This document shows, one piece after another, positions 1 to 34,074 of a stretch of DNA of 41,452 nt. The stretch is from a virus, in IMG/VR virus record IMGVR_UViG_3300032144_000028, positions 1 through 41,452 of that record. One strand, written 5' to 3'. The notes beneath the pieces were generated by a model. It searched no databases, was not told the DNA's origin, and saw nothing but the letters and a program-made list of their open reading frames with translations. Each line of letters begins with the position of its first letter. The first letter of the stretch is position 1. The position numbers were made by a program, and so were the translations under genes.

Positions 1-127
1 GGGCGAGGCCTCGGCCACGCCGGACCTCGACGTCCCCGCGCTGCTCGAGCTGCGCGACGCGACGATCACCGCGGAGCTGGCGAACGGGAAGGTCGCCGTG
101 CTCCGCGACGCCTGGCAGGCCCAGGAG
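1..127. repeat. Terminal overlap, left copy (identical to 41326..41452)
   Basis: Read base by base: 1-127 (gggcgaggcctcggccacgccggacctcgacg...ctggcaggcccaggag) equals 41326-41452 exactly. 127 nt is a typical assembler k-mer length, so this marks a circularly closed contig of 41,325 unique bp. Confidence 0.9.
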
Positions 128-2959: not shown

Positions 2960-4168
2960 ATGCCCACCTGGAAGGAACGCCTGCGGCCCGCCTCGTTTTC
3001 CGGGGTCCTCTTCCACGTCCGCGACTCGGAGAACTCCGGCGGGCGCCGCGCGGCCCTGCACGAGTACCCGCTGCGCGACCTCCCCTTCCTCGAGGAGCTC
3101 GGGCGCGAGGCGCGCCGGGTGCTGGTCGACGGCTACCTCGTCGGCGACGACTACGCGGTCCGGCGCGACCAGCTGATCACGAAGTTCGAGACGGCCTCGC
3201 CGGGCTTCCCGCGCCGCCCGGGCCGGACGCTCGTCCACCCGACCCTCGGGGCGCTCAAGGTCCTCTGCACGTCGTTCCGGTTCCGCGAGACGCTCGACGA
3301 GGGGCGCATGGTCCGCTTCTCGGCGGAGTTCGTGGAGGTAGGGGAGGAGCTCGAGCCGGCGCCCGCGATCGAGCCGGCGGGAGCCGCCGACGCGGCCGCC
3401 GAGGATCTCGGCGCGGCGGGCGCGGCCGAGTTCGCCGGCGGGGTCGAGGTCGACGGCGTCGTCGAGCGCGCGCGCGAGGCGATCGCCGACGTCGTGCACG
3501 AGACCGTCGACCGCCTGCGGCGCCTGGACGTCTTCTCGGGCCCGACCCGGGACGTGACCCGCCTGGAGTCGCTCCTGACGGGCCTCGCGAACGAGGTCTC
3601 GACCCTGGTCTCTGCCCCGGCGGACCTCGCTGCGCGGGTCCTCCAGGCCCTCGACGCGGTGCTCGACGCGGCGAGCTCGCCGGCGGGGGCGCTGGAGGCC
3701 TACCGGGCCCTCTTCGAGTACCCGCCGATCGACGACGCCGGAGAGGGCCAGCAGGGGAGCTTCGCGCGGGAGAACCACCGACTGACGGCCGAGCTCGTGC
3801 GGGTGGCGGCCGTCGGGGGCGCCGTCCGCGCCGCCGCGCGCACCGATCACGAGACCCTCGAGGACGCCCAGGAGGTGCGCGCCGAGCTCGGGGCCGAGCT
3901 CGACCTCCTGGCGGAGGAGGTCGGGGACTCGGTCCTGGTCGAGCTCGAGGACCTGCGCGCGGTCCTCGGGCGCTCGGTCCCGCCGCCGGACGCGGACCTC
4001 CCGCGCCTGCGAACGATCGAGCTGGCCGAGACCCGGCCCGCGCTGGCGGTCGCGCACGAGCTCTATCCGGCCGAGCTCGGCCGCGACGAGGAGGTCGTGC
4101 GCCGGAACTCCGTCCGCCACCCCCTGCGGGTGCCCGGGCGCGTCCCCCTCCTCGTCCTCTCGAGGTGA
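2960..4168 (+). CDS. Mu gpN/gp43-like DNA circularisation (tail/baseplate) protein
   Basis: ATG 2960, 402 aa. N-terminus MPTWKERLRPASFSGVLFHVRDSENSGGRRAALHEYPLRDLPFLEELGR matches the DNA_circ_N-type signature. Follows the tape measure. Confidence 0.8.
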   Translation: MPTWKERLRPASFSGVLFHVRDSENSGGRRAALHEYPLRDLPFLEELGREARRVLVDGYLVGDDYAVRRDQLITKFETASPGFPRRPGRTLVHPTLGALKVLCTSFRFRETLDEGRMVRFSAEFVEVGEELEPAPAIEPAGAADAAAEDLGAAGAAEFAGGVEVDGVVERAREAIADVVHETVDRLRRLDVFSGPTRDVTRLESLLTGLANEVSTLVSAPADLAARVLQALDAVLDAASSPAGALEAYRALFEYPPIDDAGEGQQGSFARENHRLTAELVRVAAVGGAVRAAARTDHETLEDAQEVRAELGAELDLLAEEVGDSVLVELEDLRAVLGRSVPPPDADLPRLRTIELAETRPALAVAHELYPAELGRDEEVVRRNSVRHPLRVPGRVPLLVLSR

Positions 4169-4171
4169 CCC

Positions 4172-5233
4172 GTGGCCGACGTCCGCGGTGACGAGCTCGA
4201 GCTCCTGGTGGGGGGTGCCCGCTACACGGGCTGGGAGCGCCTCGAGGTCGTGCGCTCCCTCGAGGCCGCCTCGGGCGCCTTCGTGGTCGAGGTCGCCGAC
4301 CGGGGCCCCCTGGCCGTCCGAGCGGGCCAGGAGGTGACCGTGCGCCTGGCCGGCGCCGTGGTCGTCCGCGGGCACGTGGACGCCGTGGAGGCCCGCGGGG
4401 ACGCCCGCCGGCGCTCCTTCACGGTCTCCGGACGGGACCGCACCGCCGACCTGGTCGACTGCTCGGAGCTCTCGGAGCCCGGCGAGTGGTTCGACGTCGG
4501 CCTCCTCGAGCTCCTGAACCTGATCGCCGCACCCTTCGAGGTGGAGGTGGAGAGCCGCCTCGAGGAGACCCCCGACCCCTTCGCGCGCTTCGCCCGCCAG
4601 CCCGGGGAGAGCGCCTGGAGCGCTGTCGAACGCGCCTGCCGGCTGCGGGGTGTGCTCGTCCACTCCTCCGGCGACGGGCGCCTCCTGCTCGAGCGCCCCG
4701 GCCGCGGCCTCGCCGGCGTCGCCCTGCGCGAGGGCCGCAACGTCCTCTCCTGGGCCGTCTCCACCGACCTCCGCCAGCGCTTCTCGTCCTACGTCGTGCG
4801 CGCCCAGTCGCCCGGGTCGGACGACTTCTACGCCGACCAGGCGGCCCTGGTGGAGGCCGAGTCGGCCGACCCCGCCGTGGGGCGCTTCCGGCCCTTGCTC
4901 GTCCTCGCCGAGGGGGCGCTGGTCTTCGAGAACGCGCGCGACCGCGCGAACTGGGAGGCCACGGTCCGGGCGGCCCGGAGCGAGCGGACGGTGGTCACGG
5001 TCCAGGGCTGGCGCCAGGCGCCGGACGCACCCCTCTGGGACCTGAACCAGCTGGTGCACGTCGTCCTGCCGGCGCTCGAGCTCGACCAGGTCCTGCTCGT
5101 CCAGGAGCTGCGCTTCGCGCGCGACCTCGAGCAGGGCACCACGACCACGATCGGCCTCACGCGGCGCGACGCCTACGACCCCCAGCCGGAGGTCGACGAG
5201 CGCGACCAGCTCGAGTACGGGGAGGGGGACTGA
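4172..5233 (+). CDS. Mu gpP/gp44-like baseplate hub protein (late control D-like)
   Basis: GTG 4172, 353 aa (...LELLVGGARYTGWERLEVVRSLEAASGAFVVEV...VTVRLAGAVVVRGHVDAVE...). Position between the gp43- and gp45-like genes. Confidence 0.75.
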   Translation: MADVRGDELELLVGGARYTGWERLEVVRSLEAASGAFVVEVADRGPLAVRAGQEVTVRLAGAVVVRGHVDAVEARGDARRRSFTVSGRDRTADLVDCSELSEPGEWFDVGLLELLNLIAAPFEVEVESRLEETPDPFARFARQPGESAWSAVERACRLRGVLVHSSGDGRLLLERPGRGLAGVALREGRNVLSWAVSTDLRQRFSSYVVRAQSPGSDDFYADQAALVEAESADPAVGRFRPLLVLAEGALVFENARDRANWEATVRAARSERTVVTVQGWRQAPDAPLWDLNQLVHVVLPALELDQVLLVQELRFARDLEQGTTTTIGLTRRDAYDPQPEVDERDQLEYGEGD

Positions 5234-5807: not shown

Positions 5808-6299
5808 GTGATCGACGTCGCCTTGGTGCCGGTCTCCGAGACCCTCGACCTCGTCCTCGAGGCCGGCGACCTCCGTCCCGAGGCGGGCCTGCGCACGGCC
5901 GTCCTGGTCTCGCTCTTCTCCGACGGCCTGGCGGACCCCGACGACGAGACCCCGGACGGGGGGCCGGACCGGCGGGGCTGGTGGGGGGCCGAGGTCCTGG
6001 ACGAGGACCGCGGGGACTTCTTCGGCTCGCGCCTCTGGCTCCTCGAGCGCGCTGCGCTGCGCGACGCGACGCTGGTCGAGGCGGAGTCCCACGTTCGCGA
6101 GGCCCTGGCCTGGCTCCTGCGGGAGGGCATCGCGGAGCGGGTCGACGTGACGGCCACGCGCCTCGACCGCGCGACCCTCTCGCTCGAGGTCCGCCTGGTG
6201 CGCGGGGCCGCGACGGAGCGCGCGGACCTCTGGTCGGCGGAGCTCGCCGAGACGGTCGAGGTCGGGCCGACCCGCTTCCGTCTGGTGGCGGTCCCCTAG
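5808..6299 (+). CDS. Mu gp46-like baseplate wedge protein (GP46 family, gpW-like)
   Basis: GTG 5808, 163 aa. ...LRTAVLVSLFSDGLADPDDETPDGGPDRRGWWGAEVLDEDRGDFFGSRLWLLERA... Confidence 0.75.
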   Translation: MIDVALVPVSETLDLVLEAGDLRPEAGLRTAVLVSLFSDGLADPDDETPDGGPDRRGWWGAEVLDEDRGDFFGSRLWLLERAALRDATLVEAESHVREALAWLLREGIAERVDVTATRLDRATLSLEVRLVRGAATERADLWSAELAETVEVGPTRFRLVAVP

Positions 6300-6318: not shown

Positions 6319-7383
6319 GTGACGTTCGCGCGGCCCACCCTCCCCGAGCTCGTCCAGCGCTCGGAGACCGAGCTCGCGACCCGGCTCGGCCTCGGCGCCC
6401 TGCTCGAGCGCAGCGTCCTCAAGGTGCTGGCGCGCACCTGGGCGGGCGGCCTGCACGGGGTGTACGGCTACCTCGACTGGGTGGCGCGCCAGGTCGTGCC
6501 GCTCTCGGCCGAGGCCGAGATCCTCGACCGCTGGGCCCAGCTCTTCGGGGTGACGCGCCGCGCCGCCGCCCGCGCCGCCGGCTCGGTCACCTTCACCGGG
6601 ACGAGCGGCGTCGCGGTCCCCCTCGGGACGGTCGTGCAGCGCGCCGACGGCCGGCGCTTCGCGACCACCGCCGGTGGCGTCCTCGCGGCCGGCACCCTGA
6701 CCCTGGCGGCCGAGGCCGAGCTGGCGGGCCTCGCCGGCAACACCGCCGCCGCGACGACGCTCTCCCTCGCGACCCCAATCGCCGGCGTGACCGCCGCCGT
6801 GGTCGCCGCCGGCGGGCTCGTGAACGGACTGGACCCCGAGACGGACCGCGAGCTGCGCGAGCGCCTGCAGGCCTTCGTCTCGGCGCGCCCGCAGGGCGGG
6901 AGCGTCGCCGATTACGAGGCCTGGGCGCGCGAGGTGCCCGGGGTGACGCGCGTCTTCGTGCTCGAGAACGGCATGGGCCTGGGCACCGTGATCGTCCTCT
7001 TCACGACCGACGACGACCCGGCCGGGCCGATCCCCAACATGGCGAAGGTCGACGAGGTCCTGGCCCGCCTGACGGACGAGACCCGCCGGGACTCGCGCCC
7101 CGTCTGCGCCGAGGTCTTCGTCGAGGCCCCGATCCCCCAGCCGGTCTCGGTGACGGTCGAGCTGACCCCGAACACCCTCGCCGTGCAGGAGGCCGTGACC
7201 GAGGCCCTGGCGGGCATGCTGCGCCGCGAGGGCCGCCCCGGCGGCACGATCCGGCGCGAGAAGTTCATCGAGGCGATCGCAACCGCCGCCGGCGAGCAGG
7301 ACCACGACCTGACCGTGCCCGCCGGCGACGTCGTCGTGGGGCCGACCAGCGTCCCCCTCCTCGACGTGGTGACCTTCCTGTAG
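6319..7383 (+). CDS. Baseplate J-like protein (Mu gp47-like)
   Basis: GTG 6319, 354 aa. ...ERSVLKVLARTWAGGLHGVYGYLDWVARQVVPLSAEAEILDRWAQLFGVTRRAAARAAGSVTFTG... Confidence 0.8.
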   Translation: MTFARPTLPELVQRSETELATRLGLGALLERSVLKVLARTWAGGLHGVYGYLDWVARQVVPLSAEAEILDRWAQLFGVTRRAAARAAGSVTFTGTSGVAVPLGTVVQRADGRRFATTAGGVLAAGTLTLAAEAELAGLAGNTAAATTLSLATPIAGVTAAVVAAGGLVNGLDPETDRELRERLQAFVSARPQGGSVADYEAWAREVPGVTRVFVLENGMGLGTVIVLFTTDDDPAGPIPNMAKVDEVLARLTDETRRDSRPVCAEVFVEAPIPQPVSVTVELTPNTLAVQEAVTEALAGMLRREGRPGGTIRREKFIEAIATAAGEQDHDLTVPAGDVVVGPTSVPLLDVVTFL

Positions 7384-7393
7384 GCGCCCCGCC

Positions 7394-8917
7394 GTGGACC
7401 AGATCGAGCTCACCGAGTTCCTGACGCCGGTCGTGGGCGCCGGAGTCTCGGTCGACTGGGACCTGACCGCCGGCGGGATCACCGAGCCGACCAAGGCGGC
7501 CGTGCTGCTCTACTCCGCCAGCGACGCCGACGACACCGACCACCCCAGCGCGCGCGTCGGGATCACTCTGGTCTCCTCCGAGAGCACCAACAAGGTCCAC
7601 TCGAACTGCGTCCTGGCCCGCGACGCCCTGGCGGCCCCGGACGCGCGGACGGCCGTCGGGGCCCGGGCCTGCTACGTACCCCGGGTTTCTGCGTTCCCCA
7701 CCCAGTTCGACCAGGACAACAGCTACCAGGCGGCGATCTCCGGCGGCTTCCGCTTCCGGACCACGATCGACCCTTTGGTCCGCAGCCGCGGCGCCGCCCT
7801 GATCCTGGCCGGGACCGGCATGCGGTCGTGGTCTGGATCCGCCGAGGCGACCACGACCCAGCAGGACGTCGACACCGGGCCGCTCCTGCCGACCGACCAG
7901 CGCTTCCGTCCGCACCTCCTGATCGTCGTGGCCACCAGGACCTCGGGGACCTCTGGCCAGATAGACGATGCGGCGATGGGAGTCGGCTTCGTAGTGGACG
8001 ACGGCGGCCCGACCCAGGTCTGTGCCTTCACGGACTGGGCCGACGCCACGGAGCCGAGCGACACCGACGGCGAGCTGCGCTCCGACGCCGGGGCCGCCGG
8101 TCTGCGCCCCTCGGCGCGCGGGACGCGAGTCCTGGTGACCTTCGAGTTCACGTCCACCGGGTTCAAGCACCAGGCGAGCGCCGACGACCTGTCCTTCACG
8201 TTCCTGGCGGTGCGGTTCGAGGCGGGGGCCCCCGGGATCTACGCCGGGAACCACGAGCTGAACGGGAGCACGAGCGAGCCGATCGTCCTACCCTTCGACC
8301 CGCACGCCGTGCTCGCCCTGAGCTCGCTCCTCGGTGGCCTGGACACGCCCGTCTCGAGCAGCGACGCCGGAGCCTTCGGGCTTTCTCTCTTCGGTCCCTC
8401 CTTCGAGCGCGCCTACTCCGCGCGCATGAAGCAGGGGGAGAGCACCTCGAGCGACGCCAGCTTCCGACAGGAGGCTGTGGCCGTCCTGACCCTGGACCAC
8501 CTGGGCGCCGTCGCGCGCCGAGGCACCTACGACGGTCCGGCCTCGCCCCACGGCTTCGTCCTCGACTTCACGTCGCCCGCCGCCGGCCACCTCACGATCC
8601 TGGCCCTCGCGCCGGTGGGTCTCGTGCCGGTGGACGCGGTCGAGCTCCCGCTGGTCCTGCCGGCGGTGACGATCGCGGGACTGATCACGCCGTCGCCGGT
8701 CGTCCTCGGACTCGGCGTCCCGGCGGCCATCGTCGTCCTGCCGCAGCAGCCGGCCCCGGCCGCGCTCGCGCTCCAGCTCCCGGCCCCGACGCTTTTCACC
8801 CCGAGTCCGATGGCCGTGCGGATCCCACCCGTCCTCGGGCCCAGCTACCACGCGAGCCTCGCCGCGCTCCTGCCGCGCGGGCTCGCCTGGAACCGCCGCG
8901 TGGAGGCCGAGACGTGA
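7394..8917 (+). CDS. Hypothetical structural protein; paralogue of the 16296..18815 product; Pro-rich repeats and a gp48-type N-terminal motif at its C-terminus
   Basis: GTG 7394, 507 aa with normal amino-acid composition. Its C-terminal third parallels the 839-aa protein (...GFVLDFTSPAAGHLTILALA... vs ...GFDVDVTDAAGGSRVVCYWAL...). This is followed by 3-4 PxPV..L.L.LPAP repeats and ends ...SYHASLAALLPRGLAWNRRVEAET*. Confidence 0.6.
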   Translation: MDQIELTEFLTPVVGAGVSVDWDLTAGGITEPTKAAVLLYSASDADDTDHPSARVGITLVSSESTNKVHSNCVLARDALAAPDARTAVGARACYVPRVSAFPTQFDQDNSYQAAISGGFRFRTTIDPLVRSRGAALILAGTGMRSWSGSAEATTTQQDVDTGPLLPTDQRFRPHLLIVVATRTSGTSGQIDDAAMGVGFVVDDGGPTQVCAFTDWADATEPSDTDGELRSDAGAAGLRPSARGTRVLVTFEFTSTGFKHQASADDLSFTFLAVRFEAGAPGIYAGNHELNGSTSEPIVLPFDPHAVLALSSLLGGLDTPVSSSDAGAFGLSLFGPSFERAYSARMKQGESTSSDASFRQEAVAVLTLDHLGAVARRGTYDGPASPHGFVLDFTSPAAGHLTILALAPVGLVPVDAVELPLVLPAVTIAGLITPSPVVLGLGVPAAIVVLPQQPAPAALALQLPAPTLFTPSPMAVRIPPVLGPSYHASLAALLPRGLAWNRRVEAET

Positions 8918-9525
8918 CCACGACGCTCCTCCGCGTCCTGCGCGCGCCGGCCGAGCTCCTGGCCCAGCTCGAGCTTCGCTCGCTCGACCTCCTCGAGGAG
9001 ACCGACGTGCGCACCACCGTCGAGCTGCTCCCCGAGTGGGCCGAGTGGCTGGGCCTGGCCGAAGACTGCACCGACGGCCTGCCGCAGACGACGCCCGAGC
9101 AGCGCTTCGCCGCCTACCGGAAGCTCACCACGCCGGGCGGACAGAACCGCTTCCACTACGTCGAGGTCGCCCAGGCGCTCGGCTACGACGTCGACCTCGA
9201 GGACCTGGTCGAGCTCCTCCCCTTCGTGGCGGAGGGCTCGGACGCCGAGGACCCCTGCTACGACGACGACTGGCGCTTCGTGCTCGAGGTGCACGCGCCG
9301 GAGGTGACGCCGCGCTTCGCGCGCGCCGGCGAGAGCGTCGCCGGCGAGCCCCTGGTCACCTTCGGGAACGAGCTCCTCTCCTGCACGCTCGACAACCTGA
9401 AGCCGGCGCACGTGCTCTTCCTCTACATCTTCGACAAGCCCTACGCTGGCTACGCCCCCTGGAACTTCGCGGCCCCCACCCCCGTCCAGCTGGGCCTCGT
9501 CCTGCCGATCCCCACCAGGAGCTGA
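8914..9525 (+). CDS. Mu gp48-like baseplate/tail protein (DUF2313 family), apparently lacking its own N-terminal motif
   Basis: GTG 8914 in a GTGA overlap, 203 aa. ...LLRVLRAPAELLAQLELRSLDLLEETDVRTTVELLPEWAEWLGLAEDC...PGGQNRFHYVEVAQALGYDV... Ends ...APTPVQLGLVLPIPTRS*. Confidence 0.75.
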   Translation: MTTTLLRVLRAPAELLAQLELRSLDLLEETDVRTTVELLPEWAEWLGLAEDCTDGLPQTTPEQRFAAYRKLTTPGGQNRFHYVEVAQALGYDVDLEDLVELLPFVAEGSDAEDPCYDDDWRFVLEVHAPEVTPRFARAGESVAGEPLVTFGNELLSCTLDNLKPAHVLFLYIFDKPYAGYAPWNFAAPTPVQLGLVLPIPTRS

Positions 9526-9528: not shown

Positions 9529-10818
9529 ATGTTCCGGATCGACCACCCGACCCGCGCCGCCGCGCTGCCCTCCCCCGACCCGGTCGCGTCCCAGGGCTTC
9601 TTCACCAAGGGCGACCCGACGATGGCGGTGCCCGCCACGCGCGTCACCCAGGACTGGCTCAACGCGGTCCAGGAGGAGCTCGCCAACGCGATCGAGGCGG
9701 AAGGGGTCGTCCTCGACAAGGGGGACCGCAGGCAACTCTCCCGCGCGCTGCAGCGCACCCGAGGGGGTTCAGGTTTCTCCAACCTGATCCAAAACCCGGA
9801 GTTCGACGTGGCCCAGCGCGGCACCACCATCGCGATCAACCCCGGGAACCCTGGCTCCGGCACCTTCGCCCTTCTGCGCGGTCCCGACCGTTGGCGGTAC
9901 CGCCTCGGAGACGCGACGGACGAGGGCACGTGGAGCACCACGATCGACGCGATCAACACCCTCGGCGACGTCCCTAACTCCGGGGCGACCAGCTACGCGA
10001 CGCTGCAGCGCAACGGGACCTCCAGCAGCGGGGTTCGACCCGCCATCGAACAAGCGATCGAGGGTGTCCACCTCCTCTCCGGCGAGCCCGTCGTGTTGGC
10101 CTTCGATTGTCGCAAGCACCAGGTCAGCGATCCGGTTGGCGACATCGAGCTCGTGGAGCTCATTCAGGTCTTCGGACAGACTGGCTCGCCGAGCGCTCCC
10201 GTGACCACGGTCCTATCCTCGCCGCTCACGGGGTACGACGGCACCTGGCGGCGGTTCACCTTCACCGGCGTCCTGCCCTCGATCTCCGGGAAGACGATCA
10301 CCAACGGGCACCACCTTCTCCTCCGGATCCACTTCACCGACCAGACGGCGACGGCGCGGGTCGACGTGACGGGTTTCGTGATGCAGCGAGGCACGATCGA
10401 TCCCGGCTACACGAGCCGCGGGCGCGTTCTGGAGACGCTCCTCTGCTCGCGGTACTTCGAGAGCAGTCGCTACGGCGACGGTGCGGTTCCGACTCTTGCA
10501 TTCACCGCCGGCTGCGAGGAGGTCGGCCTCTGGGACACCGCCTTCGACGGCGCTGGCAAGGTGCGGACCCTTGGTCGGCGATTCCTGGTCCCGAAGTACG
10601 CGCGCAACGCCTCCGTCGTCCTGCCTACGGTCACGTGGCGGGGCACCAACGGGTCGGACGACTTCGTCACGGAAGGTGCCTCGACCCACCACCCCGTGAC
10701 GTCGGCCGACGTGACCTTCGATCACTCCGGGTTCCCGGAGATCACCTCCCCGCCCGCCGGCGGGACGCTGCGCCAGTTCCGGGGTTACTTCTACGCCGAG
10801 GCCGAAATCCTGGCGTGA
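9529..10818 (+). CDS. Tail fibre protein
   Basis: ATG 9529 preceded by AGGAG, 429 aa. N-terminus MFRIDHPTRAAALPSPDPVASQGFFTKGDPTMAVPATRVTQDWLNAVQEELANAIEAEG is the recurrent myophage fibre anchor motif. The C-terminal ~330 aa is unrecognised and visibly less GC-rich. Confidence 0.8.
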   Translation: MFRIDHPTRAAALPSPDPVASQGFFTKGDPTMAVPATRVTQDWLNAVQEELANAIEAEGVVLDKGDRRQLSRALQRTRGGSGFSNLIQNPEFDVAQRGTTIAINPGNPGSGTFALLRGPDRWRYRLGDATDEGTWSTTIDAINTLGDVPNSGATSYATLQRNGTSSSGVRPAIEQAIEGVHLLSGEPVVLAFDCRKHQVSDPVGDIELVELIQVFGQTGSPSAPVTTVLSSPLTGYDGTWRRFTFTGVLPSISGKTITNGHHLLLRIHFTDQTATARVDVTGFVMQRGTIDPGYTSRGRVLETLLCSRYFESSRYGDGAVPTLAFTAGCEEVGLWDTAFDGAGKVRTLGRRFLVPKYARNASVVLPTVTWRGTNGSDDFVTEGASTHHPVTSADVTFDHSGFPEITSPPAGGTLRQFRGYFYAEAEILA

Positions 10819-13140: not shown

Positions 13141-13668
13141 TCAGAGGTTCGGCGGGCCCTGAAGCAGGACCTGGACGCTCGTCACGCCGATCCCGGCCGC
13201 GGCCGTCGCGACGCCGATCGTCCGGTTGCCGGCCGAGGTCGTCGTCACCTCGCCGGCGCCGGCGTCCCAGTAGATGCGCTGGTGCAACGTGATCGCGTCC
13301 CCGGAGACCTTGGGCAGGAGGAACGTCCCGCGCACCTGCAGCGTCGCCGGCTGGCCCGTCAGGACCGAGGCCTTCACCACCCCGAAGGCGTCGCCCGAGA
13401 GGAGCCCCTCGCCGGCGGTGAGGTCCGCGGGCGCGGTGAAGACGAGCTCGGTCCCGGCGACGCGAGCCGCGAGGGCGAGGATCGCCGAACGCACCTGGGT
13501 CGCGTCGAGCCTGTCGAGCGCGAGGCCCTCGGCCTCGACCAGGCCAGCGAGCTCCTCCTGCAGGGCGTTGAGCCAGTCGGGCGAGATCACCGTCCCCTGG
13601 ACCCCGGCGAAGGGGTTCCCTCCCACCCAGGTCCCCGCCACGGAGCCGGGGGAGTCGATGCGGAACAT
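13141..13668 (-). CDS. Chimeric protein: tail-fibre N-terminal anchor motif fused to a DUF2190 (head decoration-like) domain
   Basis: 175 aa. N-terminus MFRIDSPGSVAGTW...TVISPDWLNALQEELAGLVEAEGLAL parallels 9529..10818. The C-terminus ...VRGTFLLPKVSGDAITLHQRIYWDAGAGEVTTTSAGNRTIGVATAAAGIGVTSVQVLL parallels 38019..38369 (...KGVVRLPKSTSDAITAGARVFWDNTAKEIRAASAAGRFMIGTAETAQ...). Confidence 0.75.
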   Translation of the reverse strand: MFRIDSPGSVAGTWVGGNPFAGVQGTVISPDWLNALQEELAGLVEAEGLALDRLDATQVRSAILALAARVAGTELVFTAPADLTAGEGLLSGDAFGVVKASVLTGQPATLQVRGTFLLPKVSGDAITLHQRIYWDAGAGEVTTTSAGNRTIGVATAAAGIGVTSVQVLLQGPPNL

Positions 13669-13674
13669 GCCGAG

Positions 13675-13684
13675 AGGGTAGCCT
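13675..13684. promoter_or_regulatory. Back-to-back -10-like hexamers (minus TACCCT, plus TAGCCT) in a 23-bp divergent gap
   Basis: The + strand reads cat-gccgag-AGGGTAGCCT-cgggccc-atg. TACCCT lies 6 nt upstream of ATG 13668 (minus) and TAGCCT lies 7 nt upstream of ATG 13692 (plus). Both fit TAnnnT, and there is no room for a Shine-Dalgarno leader. Confidence 0.45.
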
Positions 13685-13691
13685 CGGGCCC

Positions 13692-14993
13692 ATGCTCAAG
13701 CACCTCTCCCGACTCGTCGCCCTGGTCCTCTGCGCCGTCGCCTGGGGCCAGGAGACCCCCCGCTACTTCGAGGTCCTGATCCCAGAGGGGAGCTCGACCG
13801 GTTTCTCGATCGACGCGAAGAGTCCCCACCAGACCCGGTACTACTCGAGCACGGCCGGACTCGAGCGCGTCGTCGGGCAGAGCCTCGGCGGGATCCCGCC
13901 CGAGCAGCTCGAAGGCGCCCGGGTCGCGGTGCGCGCGAGCCTGCGCGCCCAGGCCGCCCCGGGCTCCTTCTGGCTCGACCGCGGCTTCGACGGGGTGCGC
14001 TTCCGCGGGGCGGGCCTCGACCGCTCCCGCCTCCGGGCGCCGCCGGGCACCGACCAGACGGTGCTGGTCGACCGCCACCAGGGCGCCGTCCTCCTCGAGG
14101 CCGTCACGGTCCACGCCGGGCCGCGCCAGGCGGTCTTCTTCGGCCTCGAGCACAAGGGCGATCCGATCCTCGACCGCTTCGAGCTGCTCATGCGCGACGC
14201 CAAGGTCGTCGCGGACCCCCCGACGGACGGGAACCCCCACTCCACCGTCTGGGGGCTCTTCGCGTACCAGGCGGACGTCACCCTCGAGCGGGTCGAGCTC
14301 GACCTCCTCTTCTCGGCCGAGCACGCCTCCTACTGGCACGGCTTCGCGAAGTACGGCCTGCGGTGGAAGAACGTCAAGGCGCGCGCCGGCGCCGAGGTCT
14401 GCAAGGTCCGGAGCAGCCCCAGCGAGACGGACTGGGTCGCCGGCGCGACGATCGAGCTGCGGGGGTGCCGGATCGAGGACTGGTTCCACCCGGAGAGGTC
14501 CTGGCGCGGCGGGGCCGGGCTCGTGGTCCAGGGTTCGGGCTGCGCTGTGCTGGTCGAGCGCTGCGTCTTCCTCGGCAACGCCGGCAACCGCTCGCGCTGC
14601 ATCATGGTCGACGACTCCGGCGGGGACTTCTTCGGCTACCCCTCGGGCGCGGTGGGCGTCGGGGCCGCCAACGGCCCGGTGGTCGTGCGCGACTCGGGGC
14701 TCTTCGGCGGGCCGGCGCTCGACTCCGGGCTCGCGATCCTGGCCCGGGTCGGCAACTTCGCGGGCTCGTCGCGGCCGTGCGCCCCGCGCGTCCGCTTCTC
14801 CCGCTGCGCCCTGATCGGCGCCGGCGTGCAGCTCCAGCTGGGGGACGTCCCCGCCGGCAAGACCCGCGTGGTCGGCTGCAACACCGAGGCGATCCTCGAG
14901 CTCGTGAAGGGACTCGGGTACCCCTACGAGCCCGAGGGCGTGATCGCGCTCCGGGACCGCCTGGCGAAGATCTCCGAGGGCCTGGTGCGGTAG
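13692..14993 (+). CDS. Secreted protein with signal peptide; possible parallel beta-helix (glycanase-like) fold
   Basis: ATG 13692, 433 aa. N-terminus MLKHLSRLVALVLCAVAWGQETP. The C-terminal half is repetitive and Cys/Gly/Asn-rich (...GCAVLVERCVFLGNAGNRSRCIMVDD...VVVRDSGLFGG...VRFSRCALIGAG...). The fold call is tentative. Confidence 0.6.
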   Translation: MLKHLSRLVALVLCAVAWGQETPRYFEVLIPEGSSTGFSIDAKSPHQTRYYSSTAGLERVVGQSLGGIPPEQLEGARVAVRASLRAQAAPGSFWLDRGFDGVRFRGAGLDRSRLRAPPGTDQTVLVDRHQGAVLLEAVTVHAGPRQAVFFGLEHKGDPILDRFELLMRDAKVVADPPTDGNPHSTVWGLFAYQADVTLERVELDLLFSAEHASYWHGFAKYGLRWKNVKARAGAEVCKVRSSPSETDWVAGATIELRGCRIEDWFHPERSWRGGAGLVVQGSGCAVLVERCVFLGNAGNRSRCIMVDDSGGDFFGYPSGAVGVGAANGPVVVRDSGLFGGPALDSGLAILARVGNFAGSSRPCAPRVRFSRCALIGAGVQLQLGDVPAGKTRVVGCNTEAILELVKGLGYPYEPEGVIALRDRLAKISEGLVR

Positions 14994-15831: not shown

Positions 15832-16269
15832 ATGAGCTTCGTCTACCAGCGCCCCAAGGAGCTGCTCGCGACGGCGGCCCTCAACCTGGGCACCGCGGAC
15901 CTGCGCGTCGCCCTGGTGATGACCAACACCACGACGGACACGGAGAAGGCCGCCAACACCTTCGCCGGCTTCACCACGCTCGACGAGTGCGACGGGGCGA
16001 ACTACGCCCGCGTCGACCTCGCCGGCGTGACGACCGTCCGGGACGACGGGAACCTGATCGTCTACCTCGACGCGAACGACGCCGTCTTCACCAACCTGGG
16101 CGCGGGGACGCGGCAGAACCAGGCGGCGCTGCTCCACGTGCACAATGCGACGCCCGGCCTCGAGGTCCCGGTGGCCTTCATCGACACGGGCGGGTTCCCC
16201 TTCGACGGCACCGGCGCGAACAACACGATCCAGTGGGCCGCGCTGGGGATCCTCCAGCTGACCGGCTGA
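15832..16269 (+). CDS. Hypothetical protein (tail-fibre-cluster associated)
   Basis: ATG 15832 (the track ORF starts at 15769 with a Pro-rich extension), 145 aa. ...ADLRVALVMTNTTTDTEKAANTFAGFTTLDECDGANYARVDLAGVTTVRDDGNLIVYLDANDAVFTNLGAGTRQNQAALL... Confidence 0.6.
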   Translation: MSFVYQRPKELLATAALNLGTADLRVALVMTNTTTDTEKAANTFAGFTTLDECDGANYARVDLAGVTTVRDDGNLIVYLDANDAVFTNLGAGTRQNQAALLHVHNATPGLEVPVAFIDTGGFPFDGTGANNTIQWAALGILQLTG

Positions 16270-16295: not shown

Positions 16296-18815
16296 GTGGC
16301 GCTCGACTACGGGATGCGGGTCGTCCACTTCCGACCCGGCATCGGCGAGATCTACGAGCGGGACCTGATCTCGGCCCACGCGACGACGCCGGCGACGGCC
16401 GGCACCTTCACGATCACCGTCGACGGGCAGACGACGGCCGGGATCGCCTTCGACGCCCTGCCCTCGGCCGTGCAGTCGGCCCTCGAGGCCCTGAGCAACG
16501 TCGCGCCGGGCGACGTCGCCTGCTCGATGCTCTCCGGCACCGACCTGGGCGACGCCGGCGCGGTCCTGGTGATCGTCTGGGGCGGGGCCTTCGCCGGCGT
16601 CGACCCGGTCGTGACGGCGAACTTCGCGGGGCTCACGGGGAACCCGCACACCTTCGAGGCCCGCCTGCGCCAGGTCATCCGGATCCCCTCCGGCTACGGC
16701 GCCGACAAGACGATCCTCGCCGCTCGCTTTCGCATGGGCGGGGCCGCGGCCCTGGACACGATCGAGGCCACCGCGCGGATGTTCCTCGGCGTCGCGGACG
16801 CGACCAGCCAGTTCTCCCTGAGCTCGTCGGCCGAGGACAACGTCCTCCCCTCTTCCGCGAACGCCGGTTACCAGGTCGACACGGACTCCGTGCTGCGCAC
16901 GCCGACCGGGCACTGCTCCCGGATCGAGTTCGCCACCGGCGACGGTTCGGTCGAGGTCTCCTGGCGCGGGACCCTGCCCAACCTCCGAGCCTCGGTGGCC
17001 CTGTGGTTCGGGGACGACCTCGAGGCCAAGGTGGGCACCGTCGCCGGCTCGTCCACCCAGGACGCCTCCGTCGACTTCGACCCGGACTTCGCGAACGACC
17101 CGGTCCTCGTCGAGGTTTTCTCGGTGGGCCAGGCCTTCTCCGCCAACGGCTCCGGGAACGAGGCCATGATCTCGGCGGGCTCCGCCGGCCGAGCCTCCTC
17201 CACGATCACGAGCTCGTGCTTCGTCGTCTGCGCCGAGCACCAGCAGAGCCCGAGCTCCTCCGGGCTCGTTGGCGTCTCGGGTAGGAGCGCGGTCCGCCTG
17301 ACGAGCAACGGCGGGACGGTCACCCAGGGGGCCGGGCTCGAGGTGACGAAGATGCTCGCCGGGGAGCTCGAGTTCACCACCCGGGACGCGGCCGAGTCGC
17401 TCTCGGCGATGTTCCTCGTCGTGGCTGTCCCCGGCGGGGTGCGCGGGGTCTCGATCGCCGAGACGCAGGCCGTCGGCACGACCGGCGTGAAGAACTTCGA
17501 CTCGGTTGGCTTCCTGCCCATGGCGTGCGGCGTCGCGTCGGGCCGCACGGCCTCCGTTGGGACGGTCGGCTCCGGGCAGGGGAACCTGAGCTACGGCGCC
17601 GCCGACGGGACCTCCCAGGGGTGCTCGGGCTGGCGCGCGCGCGACAACCAGACCTCGAGCACGGAGACGCAGTCGATCACCTCGGAGACCCGCCTGGTCG
17701 ACGTGCTCGACGGGGACGCGGCCCACGACTGGATCGGCGTCTTCGACGGCTTCACCGAGGACGGGTTCGACGTCGACGTCACCGACGCGGCCGGCGGCTC
17801 GCGCGTCGTCTGCTACTGGGCTCTCGAGAAGCTCGTCCGCGTGGACCCCGACCCGGTCGAGCTCGACCTGGTCCTGCCCGCGCCCGCGATCCTGGTCGAG
17901 CTCGACCCGACCCCGGTCGGGCTCCCGCTCGTGCTGCCCGCGCCGGCGCTCCTGGCGACGCTCACGCCGGCGCCGGTCGACCTGGCCCTCGCCCTACCCG
18001 CGCCCCAGCTCCTCTCGACCGAGACGCCCGCGCCGGTGGAGCTGCCCCTGGTCCTGCCGGCGCCGGCGCTGCTCGTCACGCTGACGCCGGCGCCCGTCGA
18101 GCTCGCCCTGGTGCTCCCTGCGCCCGCGCTCCTGGTCGAGCTCGAGCCCGACCCCGTCGACCTGGCGCTCGTCCTCCCCGCGCCGCAGCTCCTCGCGACG
18201 GAGACGCCGGCGCCGATCGAGCTCGAGCTCGTCCTTCCGGCCCCCACGGTGCTCGAGGCCGGCGAGCAGTCGCCCTTCCCCGTCGAGCTCGACCTGGTCC
18301 TGCCGGCGCCGGCGCTGCTCGTCACGCTGACGCCGGCGCCCGTCGAGCTCGCCCTGGTGCTCCCCGCGCCGGCGCTCCTGGTCGAGCTCGAGCCCGACCC
18401 CGTCGACCTGGCGCTCGTCCTCCCGGCCCCGCAGCTCCTCGTCTCGGAGACGCCGGCGCCGGTCGAGCTCGTGCTGGTCCTCCCGGCGCCGACCCTGATC
18501 CTCGCCGAGGCGGAGACCCCCGCCCCGGTCGAGCTCGCGCTCGCGCTCCCCCCGCCGGCGCGCCTGCTCGAGCTCACGCCGGCCGCGGCCGTGCTCTCGC
18601 TGGTGGTCCCCGCGACGCAGGTCCTCGGCGTCCTCACCCCGGCCTCGGTCGAGCTCGCGCTCGTGGTTCCGAGCCCCTTCCTCGGGCGCCGGGTCGGGAT
18701 CGAGCTCGTCGCCGAGGTCCACCGATCCGCCTCGGCGACGGCCGAGACGGCCCGGGACTTGAGCCTCGTCGCGCCGACCCCGCGCGCGCTCGAACTCGCG
18801 GCGTCCCTGGAGTAG
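16296..18815 (+). CDS. Large repeat-containing structural (fibre-like) protein
   Basis: GTG 16296, 839 aa. A ~515-aa Ser/Thr/Gly/Ala-rich globular part is followed by 14 tandem 20-residue repeats (consensus TPAPVELxLVLPAPxLLxxL) and a ~40-aa tail. Confidence 0.75.
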   Translation: MALDYGMRVVHFRPGIGEIYERDLISAHATTPATAGTFTITVDGQTTAGIAFDALPSAVQSALEALSNVAPGDVACSMLSGTDLGDAGAVLVIVWGGAFAGVDPVVTANFAGLTGNPHTFEARLRQVIRIPSGYGADKTILAARFRMGGAAALDTIEATARMFLGVADATSQFSLSSSAEDNVLPSSANAGYQVDTDSVLRTPTGHCSRIEFATGDGSVEVSWRGTLPNLRASVALWFGDDLEAKVGTVAGSSTQDASVDFDPDFANDPVLVEVFSVGQAFSANGSGNEAMISAGSAGRASSTITSSCFVVCAEHQQSPSSSGLVGVSGRSAVRLTSNGGTVTQGAGLEVTKMLAGELEFTTRDAAESLSAMFLVVAVPGGVRGVSIAETQAVGTTGVKNFDSVGFLPMACGVASGRTASVGTVGSGQGNLSYGAADGTSQGCSGWRARDNQTSSTETQSITSETRLVDVLDGDAAHDWIGVFDGFTEDGFDVDVTDAAGGSRVVCYWALEKLVRVDPDPVELDLVLPAPAILVELDPTPVGLPLVLPAPALLATLTPAPVDLALALPAPQLLSTETPAPVELPLVLPAPALLVTLTPAPVELALVLPAPALLVELEPDPVDLALVLPAPQLLATETPAPIELELVLPAPTVLEAGEQSPFPVELDLVLPAPALLVTLTPAPVELALVLPAPALLVELEPDPVDLALVLPAPQLLVSETPAPVELVLVLPAPTLILAEAETPAPVELALALPPPARLLELTPAAAVLSLVVPATQVLGVLTPASVELALVVPSPFLGRRVGIELVAEVHRSASATAETARDLSLVAPTPRALELAASLE
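17844..18695 (+). repeat. In-frame tandem array, 14 units of ~60 bp (20 aa; two units are 22 aa)
   Basis: Units read off the translation: DPDPVELDLVLPAPAILVEL / DPTPVGLPLVLPAPALLATL / TPAPVDLALALPAPQLLSTE / TPAPVELPLVLPAPALLVTL / ... / TPASVELALVVPSPFLGRRV. Confidence 0.85.
18024..18515 (+). repeat. Higher-order duplication: two 246-bp (4-unit) copies
   Basis: 18048-18196 and 18294-18442 are nearly identical at the DNA level (offset 246 bp, a handful of substitutions). The encoded LVLPAPALLVTLTPAPVELALVLPAPALLVELEPDPVDLALVLPAPQLL occurs twice verbatim. Confidence 0.85.
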
Positions 18816-18827
18816 CCTCGGGCCCGC

Positions 18828-19268
18828 GTGAGCTGCAAGCTGCCTCGCCTGGTCCTCGGCTCCCGGAACGCCCGGATCGCGTTCCAGGTGAAGGAGCGGA
18901 ACGCGCAGGGGAAGCTCGTCCCGGTGGACCTGACGGCGGCCGCGACCCCGCCCGGGTACGTGACGGCCTACTTCCGCAAGCCCAGCGGGGCCCTCGTCAT
19001 GGTCCCCTGCGAGGTCGAGTCGCCGGCCTCGAACGGCGTCGCGCGCTACCTGACGGAGCCCGGCTTCCTGGACGAGTTCGGGGACTGGGAGGCCCAGGCG
19101 CACGTGCACCTCGCCGGCGCCCCGGCCCTCGGCTTCGGCCTCTTCGTCTCGGAGGTCGTGCGCTTCGTCGTCGTCGAGCAGCTCCGGCCCTTCTCCCCCG
19201 CGGACGAGCCCTTCCCCGTGGCCGCCACCCTCCTCCCCCTGGCCCTTCCCCAACCCACCGTCTCGTGA
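18828..19268 (+). CDS. Hypothetical tail-associated protein, possibly Ig-like (BppU_N-like) domain
   Basis: GTG 18828, 146 aa. ...IAFQVKERNAQGKLVPVDLTAAATPPGYVTAYFRKPSGALVMVPCEVESPASNGVARYLTEPGFLDEFGDWEAQAHV... Ends with ...EPFPVAATLLPLALPQPTVS*. Confidence 0.5.
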   Translation: MSCKLPRLVLGSRNARIAFQVKERNAQGKLVPVDLTAAATPPGYVTAYFRKPSGALVMVPCEVESPASNGVARYLTEPGFLDEFGDWEAQAHVHLAGAPALGFGLFVSEVVRFVVVEQLRPFSPADEPFPVAATLLPLALPQPTVS

Positions 19269-19651
19269 GAACCACCGCCCTCCTCCTCCTCGCCCTGCTC
19301 GCCGCCTGCGCCGGCCCCTCGAACGGCCTCGTGGCCCACGTCACCTCGAGCGGCGTCGGCGACGCGAGGACCGACGGCGACGTCGTCGTGGTCGTCGGCG
19401 ACGTCTCGGCCGCGCTGGGCGTGCGCACGCTCTCCGGGCTCCCGATCTTCCTCGTGCCCCCGATGCCGCTCGACCGCGCCGAGTGGTACGTGCGCAGCGG
19501 CGAGCGGGGCTACGAGCGCCGCGCCCCGCTCGCCGAGCCCCTGCCCCACTGGGTGCGCCCGCTCTACCTCGACGCCGAGCTCGAGCGCCTGCAGGGGCTC
19601 GGCATCTTCCTCGCCTTCGACCCGCCGCCGCCCCTCGACCCCGAGCAGTGA
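19265..19651 (+). CDS. Lipoprotein
   Basis: GTG 19265 in a GTGA overlap, 128 aa. N-terminus VRTTALLLLALLAACAGPSNG has a hydrophobic core plus the lipobox LAAC. It is the last 128 codons of the long track ORF 17525..19651. Confidence 0.6.
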   Translation: MRTTALLLLALLAACAGPSNGLVAHVTSSGVGDARTDGDVVVVVGDVSAALGVRTLSGLPIFLVPPMPLDRAEWYVRSGERGYERRAPLAEPLPHWVRPLYLDAELERLQGLGIFLAFDPPPPLDPEQ

Positions 19652-19689: not shown

Positions 19690-20895
19690 ATGGACGTCCT
19701 CATGCTGGCCTGGGACGACGTCTCCCGGGTCGACGCCACCCCCGAGGTCTGCCCGTCCCTGGCCGCGTTCCGCGCGCAGGGCCTCGACCTGCGCCTCGCC
19801 TTCGCCAACCCGGTCTGTTCCCAGTCTCGCGCGGTCGTGACCTTCGGCGCCCAGGGGCGGACGCTGGGGATCCTGCTGGCCATGAACCCCGAGGAGCCGG
19901 ACGGGCCGATCCCGCCGGCCTCCTGGCCGACCCTCCCCGGAGTGCTCGCGGGCGCCGGCTACGCGACGGCGCTGGTCGGGAAGTGGCACCTCGGTCGCGC
20001 GCCGAGCGGCGCCCAGCCAGCCATGGCGCCGATCGAGCGGGGCTACCAGACCTGGCTCGCCGGCACGCTCGCGAACCTGGCGCCGCCCGACCCGCCGCTG
20101 GGCCTCCCGAGCTACCGCCGCTGGCTGCGGCACGACGCGACCGCCGCCGGATGGACGGCGGCCGAGGAGACGAAGTACGCGACCCTCGCCCAGGTCGAAG
20201 AGGCGGAGGCCTGGTGGGTCGCCAACGCCGGCGCCCCGCGCTTTCTCCACGTGTCCCTGAACGAGCCCCATGGGCCCTTCACGCTCGGGATCCCCTCCGA
20301 GCTGCTCGCCGGCTGGCCCGCCCCGACGACCATGTCGAACACGCGCGCGCGCTTCCTGGCGAAGCTCCGCGCCGCCGACGTCGTCCTGGGCCGCCTGCTC
20401 GCGCTCCCCGGCGTCGAGGATGCCCTCGTCTTGCTCTACGCGGACAACGGCACCGCGTCCCACGCGGCCGGGCCGACCGAGGATCCCGAGAAGCTGAAGA
20501 CCACCACCTTCGAGGGCGGGATCCACGTCCCGGCGGCCTCGCGCTACCCCGGCGGCCCGGTCGGCGGCTCCTACGGCCAGCTCGTGCACCTGGTCGACCT
20601 CCCGCGCTTCGTGCTCGAGACCCTCGGCGTCCCGGTCCCCGCCGAGTGGGACGGTGTCACCCAGCCGCCCCGGACGCACGTGATCGCCGAGGCCGAGCTC
20701 GCCGACGGGACGCTCGAGCAGTGCGCGCGCATCGCCGACTGGAAGCTGCGCGCGCGCACCCCGCCCGGGGGCACCAAGCTCGAGGAGCTCTACGACCTCG
20801 CGAACGACCCGAGCGAGGTCTCCCCGGTGCCGCTCGGCCAGGCGAACCCGACGCTGCTCGCCGGGCTGCGCTCGGTGCTCTATCCGGCCCCCTGA
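19690..20895 (+). CDS. Sulfatase-family (alkaline phosphatase superfamily) protein with a non-canonical CSQSR active-site motif
   Basis: ATG 19690, 401 aa. Ordered landmarks: MLAWDD, PVCSQSR (Cys codon 19816-19818), GKWHLG, LNEPHGPF, YADNGT, EGGIHVPA, LVDLPRFVLETLGVP, LYDLANDPSEV. No signal peptide. Confidence 0.75.
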   Translation: MDVLMLAWDDVSRVDATPEVCPSLAAFRAQGLDLRLAFANPVCSQSRAVVTFGAQGRTLGILLAMNPEEPDGPIPPASWPTLPGVLAGAGYATALVGKWHLGRAPSGAQPAMAPIERGYQTWLAGTLANLAPPDPPLGLPSYRRWLRHDATAAGWTAAEETKYATLAQVEEAEAWWVANAGAPRFLHVSLNEPHGPFTLGIPSELLAGWPAPTTMSNTRARFLAKLRAADVVLGRLLALPGVEDALVLLYADNGTASHAAGPTEDPEKLKTTTFEGGIHVPAASRYPGGPVGGSYGQLVHLVDLPRFVLETLGVPVPAEWDGVTQPPRTHVIAEAELADGTLEQCARIADWKLRARTPPGGTKLEELYDLANDPSEVSPVPLGQANPTLLAGLRSVLYPAP

Positions 20896-31594: not shown

Positions 31595-31901
31595 GGGTTG
31601 CTCGCGGTGCACCGCCCGCGCGCGCCGCACGGGGGAGCGGCGCCAGCGCTGCCGGGGCTGCGCCGGCGCCTGGGCCACCTTTCAGGCGAGCGCGCGCCAG
31701 CTGATCGACCTCCACGCCGAGCCGGCCCAGGTCCTCGTCGAGCACGACGCCAGCGGCTTCACGGTCCGCCGCTCCCAGGACGTGGCGCCGACCGCGGCCT
31801 GGTTCGAGCCATGGCTCTACCTGCACGCGCGCGGGCTCGCCGTCCTGACCCACGGCCCGGACGGGAAGCTCGCGTCGATCCGATTCTGGGCGACGTGGTG
31901 A
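31581..31901 (+). CDS. Small protein with N-terminal C4 zinc-ribbon-like motif
   Basis: GTG 31581 is the only start in frame, 106 aa. CSRC-x17-CRGC, then ...LIDLHAEPAQVLVEHDASGFTVRRSQDVAPTAAWFEPWLYLHARGLAVLTHGPDGKLASIRFWATW*. Its stop overlaps the terminase GTG (GTGA). Confidence 0.45.
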   Translation: MGRPEGCSRCTARARRTGERRQRCRGCAGAWATFQASARQLIDLHAEPAQVLVEHDASGFTVRRSQDVAPTAAWFEPWLYLHARGLAVLTHGPDGKLASIRFWATW

Positions 31902-33850: not shown

Positions 33851-34074
33851 ACCTGGACCGCCTCGAGCGGGCGATCGCCTCCGGGGCCCTGACCGTCCGG
33901 TACGACGACGGCCGCCAGGTCACCTACCGCTCCCTCGAGGAGCTCTTCCAGGCCCGCAACCTCGTCCGCCGGTGCCTCGGCCTCGACGCCGGCCCGACCC
34001 GCAAGGTCGCGGCCCACTCGAAGGGCGTCGAAGGGCCGATCGGCGGGGACCACTTCTGGACCCGGATCCCGTGA
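33829..34074 (+). CDS. Head-tail joining protein (lambda gpW-like)
   Basis: ATG 33829, 81 aa. MATFSQVDLDRLERAIASGALTVRYDDGRQVTYRSLEELFQARNLVRRCL... Lies between terminase and portal, as in lambda. Confidence 0.7.
   Translation: MATFSQVDLDRLERAIASGALTVRYDDGRQVTYRSLEELFQARNLVRRCLGLDAGPTRKVAAHSKGVEGPIGGDHFWTRIP

Follow-up and report, generated by a model that had tools for sequence, protein, structure and literature searches.

We describe a proline-punctuated tandem repeat in an 839-residue protein encoded on a 41,452-bp stretch of viral DNA, IMG/VR virus record IMGVR_UViG_3300032144_000028 (positions 1 to 41,452; hereafter the window). Judging by its matches across protein databases, the repeat is no one-off, but one member of a widespread and undescribed class of phage tail proteins. 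On balance, we think it probable that the array forms a structured β-repeat stalk that is anchored at its C-terminal end, displays a distal β-rich domain and shifts in copy number by unequal recombination. The 839-residue protein would then be a virion protein at the baseplate periphery of a myophage with a Mu-like baseplate, most likely acting in host recognition or adhesion. Each half-unit of the repeat would comprise a Pro-x-Pro (PxP) corner followed by a seven-residue β-strand with alternating hydrophobic residues, and successive units would stack in register; the Arg-periodic tail that follows the array would form the virion-proximal end, with the β-rich middle domain and an N-terminal display module held distally. 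The number of units would set the reach of the stalk, and unequal recombination, acting on 60-bp units or on four-unit blocks of 246 bp, would alter it without loss of frame.

A ten-residue rhythm underlies the array

A first-pass annotation of the window, made from the letters alone, had reported a strictly phased 60-bp repeat filling a third of the protein. The repeat is present where that annotation placed it, and it stands far above chance. Tandem Repeats Finder returned a period of 60 bp with 13.2 copies (17853-18658, score 457) and a period of 246 bp with 2.8 copies (17856-18538, score 896). A DNA pattern requiring six PxP motifs, each exactly 10 codons apart, matched 12 times in the window, always within the array, and in 0 of 100 dinucleotide-preserving shuffles. 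Since the window (~74% GC) contains many spurious open reading frames (ORFs), real genes were picked by their GC content at third codon positions (GC3); this is 0.99 inside the array, so the array frame is genuinely coding. The array takes up 284 of 839 residues (34%), in agreement with the estimate of a third.

The strict 20-residue phasing holds in part. There are indeed 14 units, but the base period is 10 residues, with 24 PxP motifs at 10-residue spacing and only two interruptions, each an insertion of 2 residues; units 7 and 11 are longer than the rest (22 residues), and units 13-14 are degenerate. Each 20-residue unit consists of two alternating 10-residue half-units, A and B, which both comprise a PxP and a 7-residue strand. 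The A half-unit reads P-[A/D]-P-V-[E/D]-L-x-L-V-L and the B half-unit P-A-P-x-L-L-V-[T/E]-[L/E]-[T/E]. Across the 12 regular A half-units, P1, P3, L6, L8 and L10 are each found in 12/12 and V4 in 11/12. The composition of the array is dominated by Leu (25%), Pro (20%), Ala (15.5%) and Val (13%), with 1.4% Gly, and its autocorrelation peaks at 10, 20 and 40 residues, with none at 15-16.

A recent duplication of four units

Units 4-7 and 8-11 form two consecutive 246-bp copies (Table 1) that are identical at 214/246 positions. Their cores (18048-18196 and 18294-18442) are identical at 144/149 positions, and all 4 codon differences within the near-identical core are synonymous, with 0 non-synonymous. 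Judging by this near-identity, the 246-bp block was duplicated recently compared with the remaining units, as the first-pass annotation had proposed. The two extra residues in units 7 and 11 (22 residues each) explain why the higher-order period is 246 and not 240. The duplication is in frame, and its removal would leave 10 units, a number within the typical family range of 5-11. An older and weaker relation is seen at offset 240, between units 1-4 and units 5-8; the array appears to have lengthened through successive four-unit duplications.

Short-read metagenomes are prone to misassembly of tandem repeats, such that the duplication, or indeed the whole array length, could be an artefact of assembly. 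We regard this as hardly credible. The two ends of the contig share an exact 127-bp overlap (window 1-127 = 41326-41452), which we interpret as the signature of a circular assembly at a final k-mer length of 127; each 127-mer across the two copies would then be unique, as the longest exact run common to both is 72 bp. The copies differ at 32/246 positions, neither the reading frame nor GC3 is disturbed, and the identical 839-residue sequence is recorded on 2 contigs in the protein database, where its 90% cluster has one member.

The repeat belongs to a widespread class

An exhaustive phmmer (HMMER) search was performed with residues 505-839 against 1.84 billion representatives (clusters at 50% identity), and retrieved 184 protein clusters at E≤1e-3, with 44 at ≤1e-10. 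Clearly phased arrays were seen in 100 of the 149 listed matches, with periods of 20 (38), 22 (40), 23 (15), 10 (6) and 24 (1) residues. The class-wide core is (L/V)-T-P-x-P-V-x-h-x-h-x-h-P-A-P, followed by a variable second strand segment of 7-10 residues. Across the 20-, 22- and 23-residue classes, the second half-unit varies in sequence and in length (10-13 residues), with the strand pattern kept. All 12 regular units of the 839-residue protein fit this definition of a Pro-punctuated 20-23-residue class.

No described repeat family accounts for these sequences. The repeat was matched by no Pfam, NCBIfam or PHROG family, no PHROG covers it in 9 relatives, and PDB sequences gave no match to it at E≤10. 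A literature search found no description of the motif, and a recent atlas of fibre structures makes no mention of proline (PMC12143355). In ~50,000 GenBank phages, tblastn detected no copy of the repeat or of the protein encoded directly upstream of it, although the BLAST low-complexity filter may mask the array. Word-indexed searches with the whole protein, the middle domain or the family alignment returned matches to the N-terminal module only, or nothing. The suggestion in the first-pass annotation that the repeat may be a new fibre or stalk building block is thus upheld as regards novelty, and the stalk reading is a reasonable one because the repeat sits in a phage tail-module protein. What does not hold is any notion that it is peculiar to this protein, given the 184 clusters found. 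The six-PxP DNA pattern was also tried as a class finder in genome and viral contigs and was set aside, as almost all of the matches listed were simple (Pro-X)n tracts.

All seven of the genomic contexts that we inspected are phage tail or structural modules. One distant repeat protein is encoded in the structural module of an SU10-like podophage, another in a siphophage-like element within a metagenome-assembled genome, where its gene is the last large one to follow the tape measure, and two more in phage-like operons. ConA/LamG lectin-like domains are often combined with the repeat.

Two further observations concern the variety within the class. Five proteins (P0037, P0044, P0083, P0114 and P0155) carry near-perfect 10-residue repeats, with lag-10 autocorrelation of 0.8-0.9 and up to 42 PxP motifs, and may represent a simpler or younger form of the strand-corner repeat. 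In the related contig L004, the gene of a 114-residue CarboxypepD_reg-like protein (9650-9994) immediately precedes the repeat gene. Both this protein and the distant repeat protein P0012 end in GSPD[VI]AGT[ST]VNTLVGS, which suggests that domains have been shuffled between stand-alone and fused forms.

Architecture of the 839-residue protein and its family

The protein is built from an N-terminal module, a β-rich middle domain, the array and a short conserved tail (Table 1). The last 40 residues keep the 10-residue rhythm, with Arg substituting for PxP. Seven relatives (P0033, P0031, P0013, P0017, P0008, P0011 and P0085) contain the same ~400-residue middle domain and make up a core family, to which P0009 was added through alignment; local phmmer E-values for the first six range from 1.8e-19 to 6e-4. 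The architecture is the same in all, namely a β-rich domain, a variable number of units and a ~40-residue tail with Arg every 10 residues. The 839-residue protein belongs with them by its middle-domain homology, its array and its conserved C-terminal tail, but has 14 units compared to 5-11 in the core-family members. Close relatives of the repeat protein were not found, either in single-protein searches of IMG/VR or, with P0001, in metagenomes. No Pfam or NCBIfam family falls on the protein, and inspection by eye shows neither a signal peptide nor a transmembrane segment in it or its relatives.

The N-terminal ~90-residue module is present only in the window protein among the core family, and accounts for the sole PHROG matches of the protein (residues 29-116). 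It has no Pfam entry, and its consensus is TGGTFTLTxxGQTTAxIAxxASAAxVQxALExLSNIAxGDVxV. Large metagenomic proteins (P0002-P0007) carry 3-6 copies of the module (~85 residues) in tandem, and it is also found as an add-on of a Nocardia phage major tail protein, a Streptomyces phage protein and a tail-sheath PHROG. Because of these tandem copies and its attachment to major tail and sheath proteins, the module appears to behave like a surface decoration domain.

A paralogue in the baseplate operon is fused to gp48 in a related phage

A hidden Markov model (HMM) of the repeat unit also picked up a 507-residue protein encoded in the window between Baseplate J and a gp48-like wedge protein. This is a paralogue of the 839-residue protein. 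In hhalign it matches the family with a probability of 97.4% (E 1.4e-11, 352 columns), the match running from the β-rich domain in register into the Pro units, and BLASTP gives 34% identity over 234 residues. In contig L002, the orthologue is a single 735-residue polypeptide that comprises the β-rich domain, ~5 Pro units and a gp48 domain, with phrog_203 ('baseplate wedge') covering residues 512-702, directly after the array. In the window and in L004, the paralogue and gp48 genes instead overlap by GTGA/ATGA, and the paralogue's C-terminus (LLPRGLAWNRR in the window) is the N-terminal motif of the gp48 domain (LLPRGLAW). The 203-residue gp48-like protein of the window scores 62.6 bits against PF10076 (cut-off 37.4; E 5e-17), and its match begins only at profile position 20, which is consistent with the gp48 N-terminal motif having stayed on the paralogue. 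We read this as gene fission or gene fusion affecting the baseplate wedge (window 8852-8965; L004 1030-1140; L002 1831-1950).

Because the L002 fusion puts gp48 right after the array, the C-terminal end of the paralogue array is likely baseplate-proximal. At least in the paralogue, the array would then be a connector between the wedge protein and a distal β-rich domain. The paralogue is linked to the baseplate by this fusion and by the split motif, and the 839-residue protein by context and homology. There is one gp48 per wedge, and the Mu fibre docks on gp48 (PMC11915804).

The gp48-like protein has a C-terminal extension of ~30 residues with the pattern DKPYxGYAPW...PxxxxxxLxLPxPxR[ST], which ends in a PxP-strand-PxP-like unit (~nt 9469-9522: APTPVQLGLVLPIPTRS). 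This terminal unit hints at co-stacking with the arrays, and invites an alternative in which the repeat unit is a hetero-oligomeric assembly code. The strands of gp48, the paralogue and the 839-residue protein (one unit, ~3.5 units and 14 units, respectively) would co-stack by β-sheet augmentation into a multi-chain 'rope' that is both attachment and stalk, and this is compatible with the stalk reading. The extension is found in one clade only (the window, L002, L004 and L307-L310) and is absent from the other 76 gp48 homologues. The alternative gains from this clade-specific, unit-like end, and from the C-terminal region of P2 gpI, a gp48 homologue, which has been proposed to hold the fibre by 'rope-like' β-sheet contacts with two fibre chains (bioRxiv 10.64898/2026.09.14.750843). 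The high hydrophobicity of the array and the failure to model it as a monomer point the same way, and with gp48 present once per wedge (PMC11915804), the gp48-fused array of L002 cannot be a simple homotrimer. Set against this, the gp48 terminal unit is weak when scored with the unit HMM (independent E-value 0.05, 8.3 bits), and repeat proteins of other phage types are found without gp48. The co-occurrence of gp48 unit and array is confined to one lineage, and thus phylogenetically confounded; we rejected it as independent evidence. Overall we consider a multi-chain rope unlikely, though worth keeping in view. A broader form of the idea, to which we give slightly less credence again, is that of a portable inter-protein assembly code, wherein the gp48 C-terminal unit nucleates in-register co-stacking into a hetero-oligomeric β 'rope' with peripheral arrays that are C-terminally anchored; unequal recombination would reset the length of the rope, and with it the reach of the binding domains on display. 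If true, both the fold and the logic of attachment would be new for contractile-tail baseplates, and common to myo-, podo- and siphophage lineages.

The cassette around the repeat gene

The repeat gene lies between a member of the phrog_644 family upstream, hereafter the partner, and a conserved ORF downstream (Table 1). Relatives in Mu-like-baseplate phages have syntenic cassettes, with a ~146-residue phrog_644 partner, a repeat protein, a ~146-residue ORF and a sulfatase nearby. The partner carries an invariant MTNTT.DT...TLDE motif, and is 43-46% identical in an unrelated podophage, compared to 92% in related phages. These include L248, for which identity in the repeat protein is only ~32%, with 8 units against the 14 of the window. 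The partner is found in at least 56 IMG/VR contigs (L248-L303), mostly preceding unrelated and variable proteins. As it is far more conserved than the repeat protein and usually precedes unrelated proteins, it may be a conserved adaptor placed before a swappable distal protein. An obligate pairing of partner and repeat was considered and rejected, as only L248/249, L270/271 and L280 among the 56 partner loci have a Pro-repeat protein next. We likewise dropped the idea that the 146-residue downstream protein ends in one repeat unit, as the unit HMM gives no match.

Beyond this ORF is a probable lipoprotein gene (19265-19651), with a signal peptide and the lipobox LLAAC. A long spurious ORF (17525-19651) conceals this gene, which has a homologue at L001 4527-4937. 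A sulfatase-family gene (PF00884) follows at ~19690-20895, with a likely true start at MDVLMLAWDD and an active-site signature of CSQSR compared to the canonical C-x-P-x-R. A sulfatase is also found near the cassette in L001, L002 (on the opposite strand) and L004.

Predicted structure and alternative readings

AlphaFold2 (AF2) modelling of the full protein with a 9-sequence alignment gave an all-β middle domain, with predicted local distance difference test (pLDDT) values of 60-89 in many blocks. Fold searches with this full-length model returned TM-scores of at most 0.2 on the query and no decisive match; weak hints were to a jelly-roll in the PDB, and to phage minor-tail, DUF7483 and ConA-like proteins in BFVD. 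In a separate model of the array plus tail, the A half-unit appears as a β-strand every 20 residues, forming 12 rungs at low confidence, which suggests in-register stacking of A strands, although the model is unreliable. The strict alternation of large hydrophobic residues in 7-residue strands, conserved across the repeat classes, argues for a buried-core β structure rather than a flexible Pro linker. Candidate folds are a two-sheet solenoid, an intertwined homo-oligomer and the hetero-oligomeric rope discussed above.

Several observations weigh against the array being a C-terminally anchored stalk at the baseplate. In the full-length monomer model the array itself has a pLDDT of ~30, and the array plus tail, modelled as a monomer with 31 sequences, reaches a pLDDT of 45 and a predicted template modelling score (pTM) of 0.36. 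The C-terminal tail of the 839-residue protein differs from the gp48-type end of the paralogue. An N-terminal globular domain with a C-terminal anchor would reverse the order of classical fibres, and this polarity is drawn from the paralogue only. In L002 and L004, non-structural genes, among them a methyltransferase and ORFs on the reverse strand, stand between the cassette and the baseplate genes, and the cassette adjoins the accessory-looking lipoprotein and sulfatase genes.

The low pLDDT in both AF2 runs, the 20% Pro and the variable copy number would also fit a disordered or polyproline-II-like tether with no defined stacked structure, in the manner of the Pro/Thr linkers found in glycoside hydrolases or of TonB with its Pro-rich spacer. 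We think such a tether quite improbable. Known flexible Pro linkers are hydrophilic, while this array comprises 25% Leu, 13% Val and 15.5% Ala with invariant hydrophobics at alternate positions, conserved across divergent unit classes, and so hydrophobic a chain would not remain solvated. That 4/4 codon differences in the duplicated core are synonymous points the same way, albeit with small numbers.

The genes around the array raise a different possibility, which we judge very improbable, that partner, repeat protein, 146-residue ORF, lipoprotein and sulfatase form a moron, an accessory module outside the virion that targets the host envelope, with the repeat protein at the cell surface or spanning the envelope. 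The position of the cassette at the end of the late region, beside the lipoprotein and sulfatase genes, speaks for this, as do the recurrence of that linkage in L001, L002 and L004 and the non-structural genes between cassette and baseplate in L002 and L004. On the other side, neither the 839-residue protein nor its relatives have a visible signal peptide or transmembrane segment, the paralogue is inside the baseplate operon and is fused to gp48 in L002, the N-terminal module is found in tail tube and sheath proteins, and distant members of the class are encoded in structural modules.

Genome context

The exact 127-bp terminal overlap means that the contig closes into a circle of ~41.3 kb, a complete phage genome whose tube gene spans the junction. 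The phage is a myophage with a Mu-like baseplate, and it also encodes a conventional tail fibre protein (Table 1). Its lambda-type large terminase has its closest cultured relatives in Wolbachia phage WO (~50% identity) and in Ralstonia phages. A minus-strand Phage_cement_2 (head decoration) gene at 13141-13695 sits amid the tail-fibre and accessory region, and likewise in L002 and L004.

Table 1 Features of the window discussed in the text, with positions counted from the first nucleotide of the window.
Feature	Position	Strand	Remarks
Tape measure	1093-2814		
Hub proteins	2960-5233		
Wedge	5808-6299		
Baseplate J (Mu gp47-like) wedge protein	6319-7383	+	
Paralogue, 507 aa, between Baseplate J and gp48	7394-8917	+	β-rich domain and ~3.5 Pro units (~nt 8618-8818)
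Mu gp48-like baseplate wedge protein, 203 aa	8914-9525	+	GTGA overlap with paralogue stop
Conventional tail fibre protein, 429 aa	9529-10818	+	
Upstream partner, 145 aa, phrog_644 family	15832-16269	+	
Repeat-bearing ORF, 839 aa, GTG start	16296-18815	+	GC3 0.98 overall, 0.96-0.99 along its length
N-terminal ~90-aa module (putative surface display), residues ~25-115	16368-16640	+	
β-rich middle domain, residues 116-515	16641-17840	+	Common to core family and paralogue 7394-8917
Pro-punctuated array, residues 516-799	17841-18692	+	14 units = 28 half-units
Higher-order copy 1, units 4-7, 246 bp	18021-18266	+	
Higher-order copy 2, units 8-11, 246 bp	18267-18512	+	
Conserved C-terminal tail, residues 800-839	18693-18812	+	Candidate anchor; last residue Glu
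Downstream 146-aa ORF, conserved in cassette	18828-19268	+	
Terminase	31598-33850		
Portal	33690-35750		
Sheath	39681-41153		

Significance

The class marks a sizeable unannotated part of the tail-protein repertoire, being common in metagenomic phages and absent from Pfam, NCBIfam, PHROGs and PDB. It is apparently concentrated in phages of uncultured hosts, and those examined most closely are high-GC. The shaft and stalk folds known from phage host-recognition proteins are limited in number. For comparison, an atlas of E. coli phage fibres defines 16 classes that cover only ~24% of annotated fibres (PMC12143355). A profile of the repeat would let annotation pipelines flag tail or baseplate-associated proteins, and the strictly periodic, simple sequence is attractive for structure determination and for stalk-length engineering. 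The gp48 fusion in addition provides a concrete attachment model, with a polarity that would be reversed relative to classical fibres.

Comparison with known repeats and attachment systems

The first-pass annotation did not recognise the repeat as collagen-like or as a known fibre or β-helix motif, and at the sequence level (Pfam, NCBIfam, PHROGs and PDB) this is borne out. Collagen is not a fit, as the array lacks G-X-Y and any period-3 pattern, contains only 1.4% Gly and has no match to Pfam Collagen, and no known tail-fibre family in Pfam, PHROGs or NCBIfam covers the repeat region.

The triple β-helix shafts of T4 gp5, gp12 and the endosialidase stalk are elongated, rigid β structures whose length scales with the number of repeats. 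Like the array, they are built from strand-plus-corner repeats of 8-10 residues with alternating hydrophobics that point inwards, and they occur in baseplate-associated phage proteins. The C-terminal repeats of T4 gp5 are the VxGxxxxx octapeptides of a triple-stranded β-helix (PMC4576200). The array differs in that its period is 10 and not 8, its corners are PxP and not a conserved Gly, and it has a 20-residue, two-strand super-period with a second half of 10-13 residues; PDB sequences gave no match at E≤10. An obligate homotrimer is further argued against by the fusion of one paralogue to gp48, of which there is one copy per wedge.

A second comparison is with the triple β-spiral of adenovirus fibre, reovirus sigma1 and PRD1 P5, in which repeats of 15-16 residues have a conserved Pro/Gly turn and their number, which varies from strain to strain, sets the shaft length. 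Like the array, it pairs short strands in which hydrophobic residues alternate, with a turn residue that is conserved. The period of 20-23 residues, the two PxP corners per unit, the lack of an autocorrelation peak at 15-16 and the lack of any Pfam or PDB match set the array apart, as does its position C-terminal to a globular domain, where the triple β-spiral has an N-terminal anchor and a C-terminal knob.

The unit is also similar in size to those of two-sheet β-solenoids, such as CsgA (19-23-residue repeats) and RTX (2 x 9 residues), which similarly have a unit of ~20 residues with two differing strands. As a solenoid-type unit holds two strands of different character, the A/B alternation would be naturally explained, and the low-confidence AF2 model does stack A strands in register with one rung per unit. 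The array nevertheless lacks the S-x5-Q-x-G-x-G-N-x-A-x3-Q and GGxGxDxUx consensus motifs of curli CsgA and RTX, and contains almost no Gly or Asn. Solenoids are usually modelled confidently by AF2, whereas the array is modelled poorly as a monomer (pLDDT 45, pTM 0.36).

Phage Ig-like and other tandem-repeat decoration domains, including the BACON domains of crAss-like phages, are modular, surface-exposed accessories that evolve fast through changes in copy number (PMC6949934). The N-terminal module of the 839-residue protein appears to behave as such a domain. The Pro repeat is of another kind, as its 20-residue unit is sub-domain in size, compared to the whole domains of ~80-100 residues used in Ig-like and BACON decoration.

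Finally, the paralogue invites comparison with fibre attachment through gpI/gp48 in P2 and Mu. The wedge family is the same (PF10076), and in each case a peripheral protein would be joined to the wedge through β-strand contacts of a flexible region of gp48/gpI, either C-terminal or a loop such as the fibre-docking loop of gp48. The gp48 C-terminal extension seen here is clade-specific, unlike the situation in P2 and Mu. In those phages, the partner of the wedge protein is the N-terminus of a trimeric fibre, whereas here it is a Pro-repeat protein positioned N-terminal to gp48, as seen both in the L002 fusion and in the split motif of the window.

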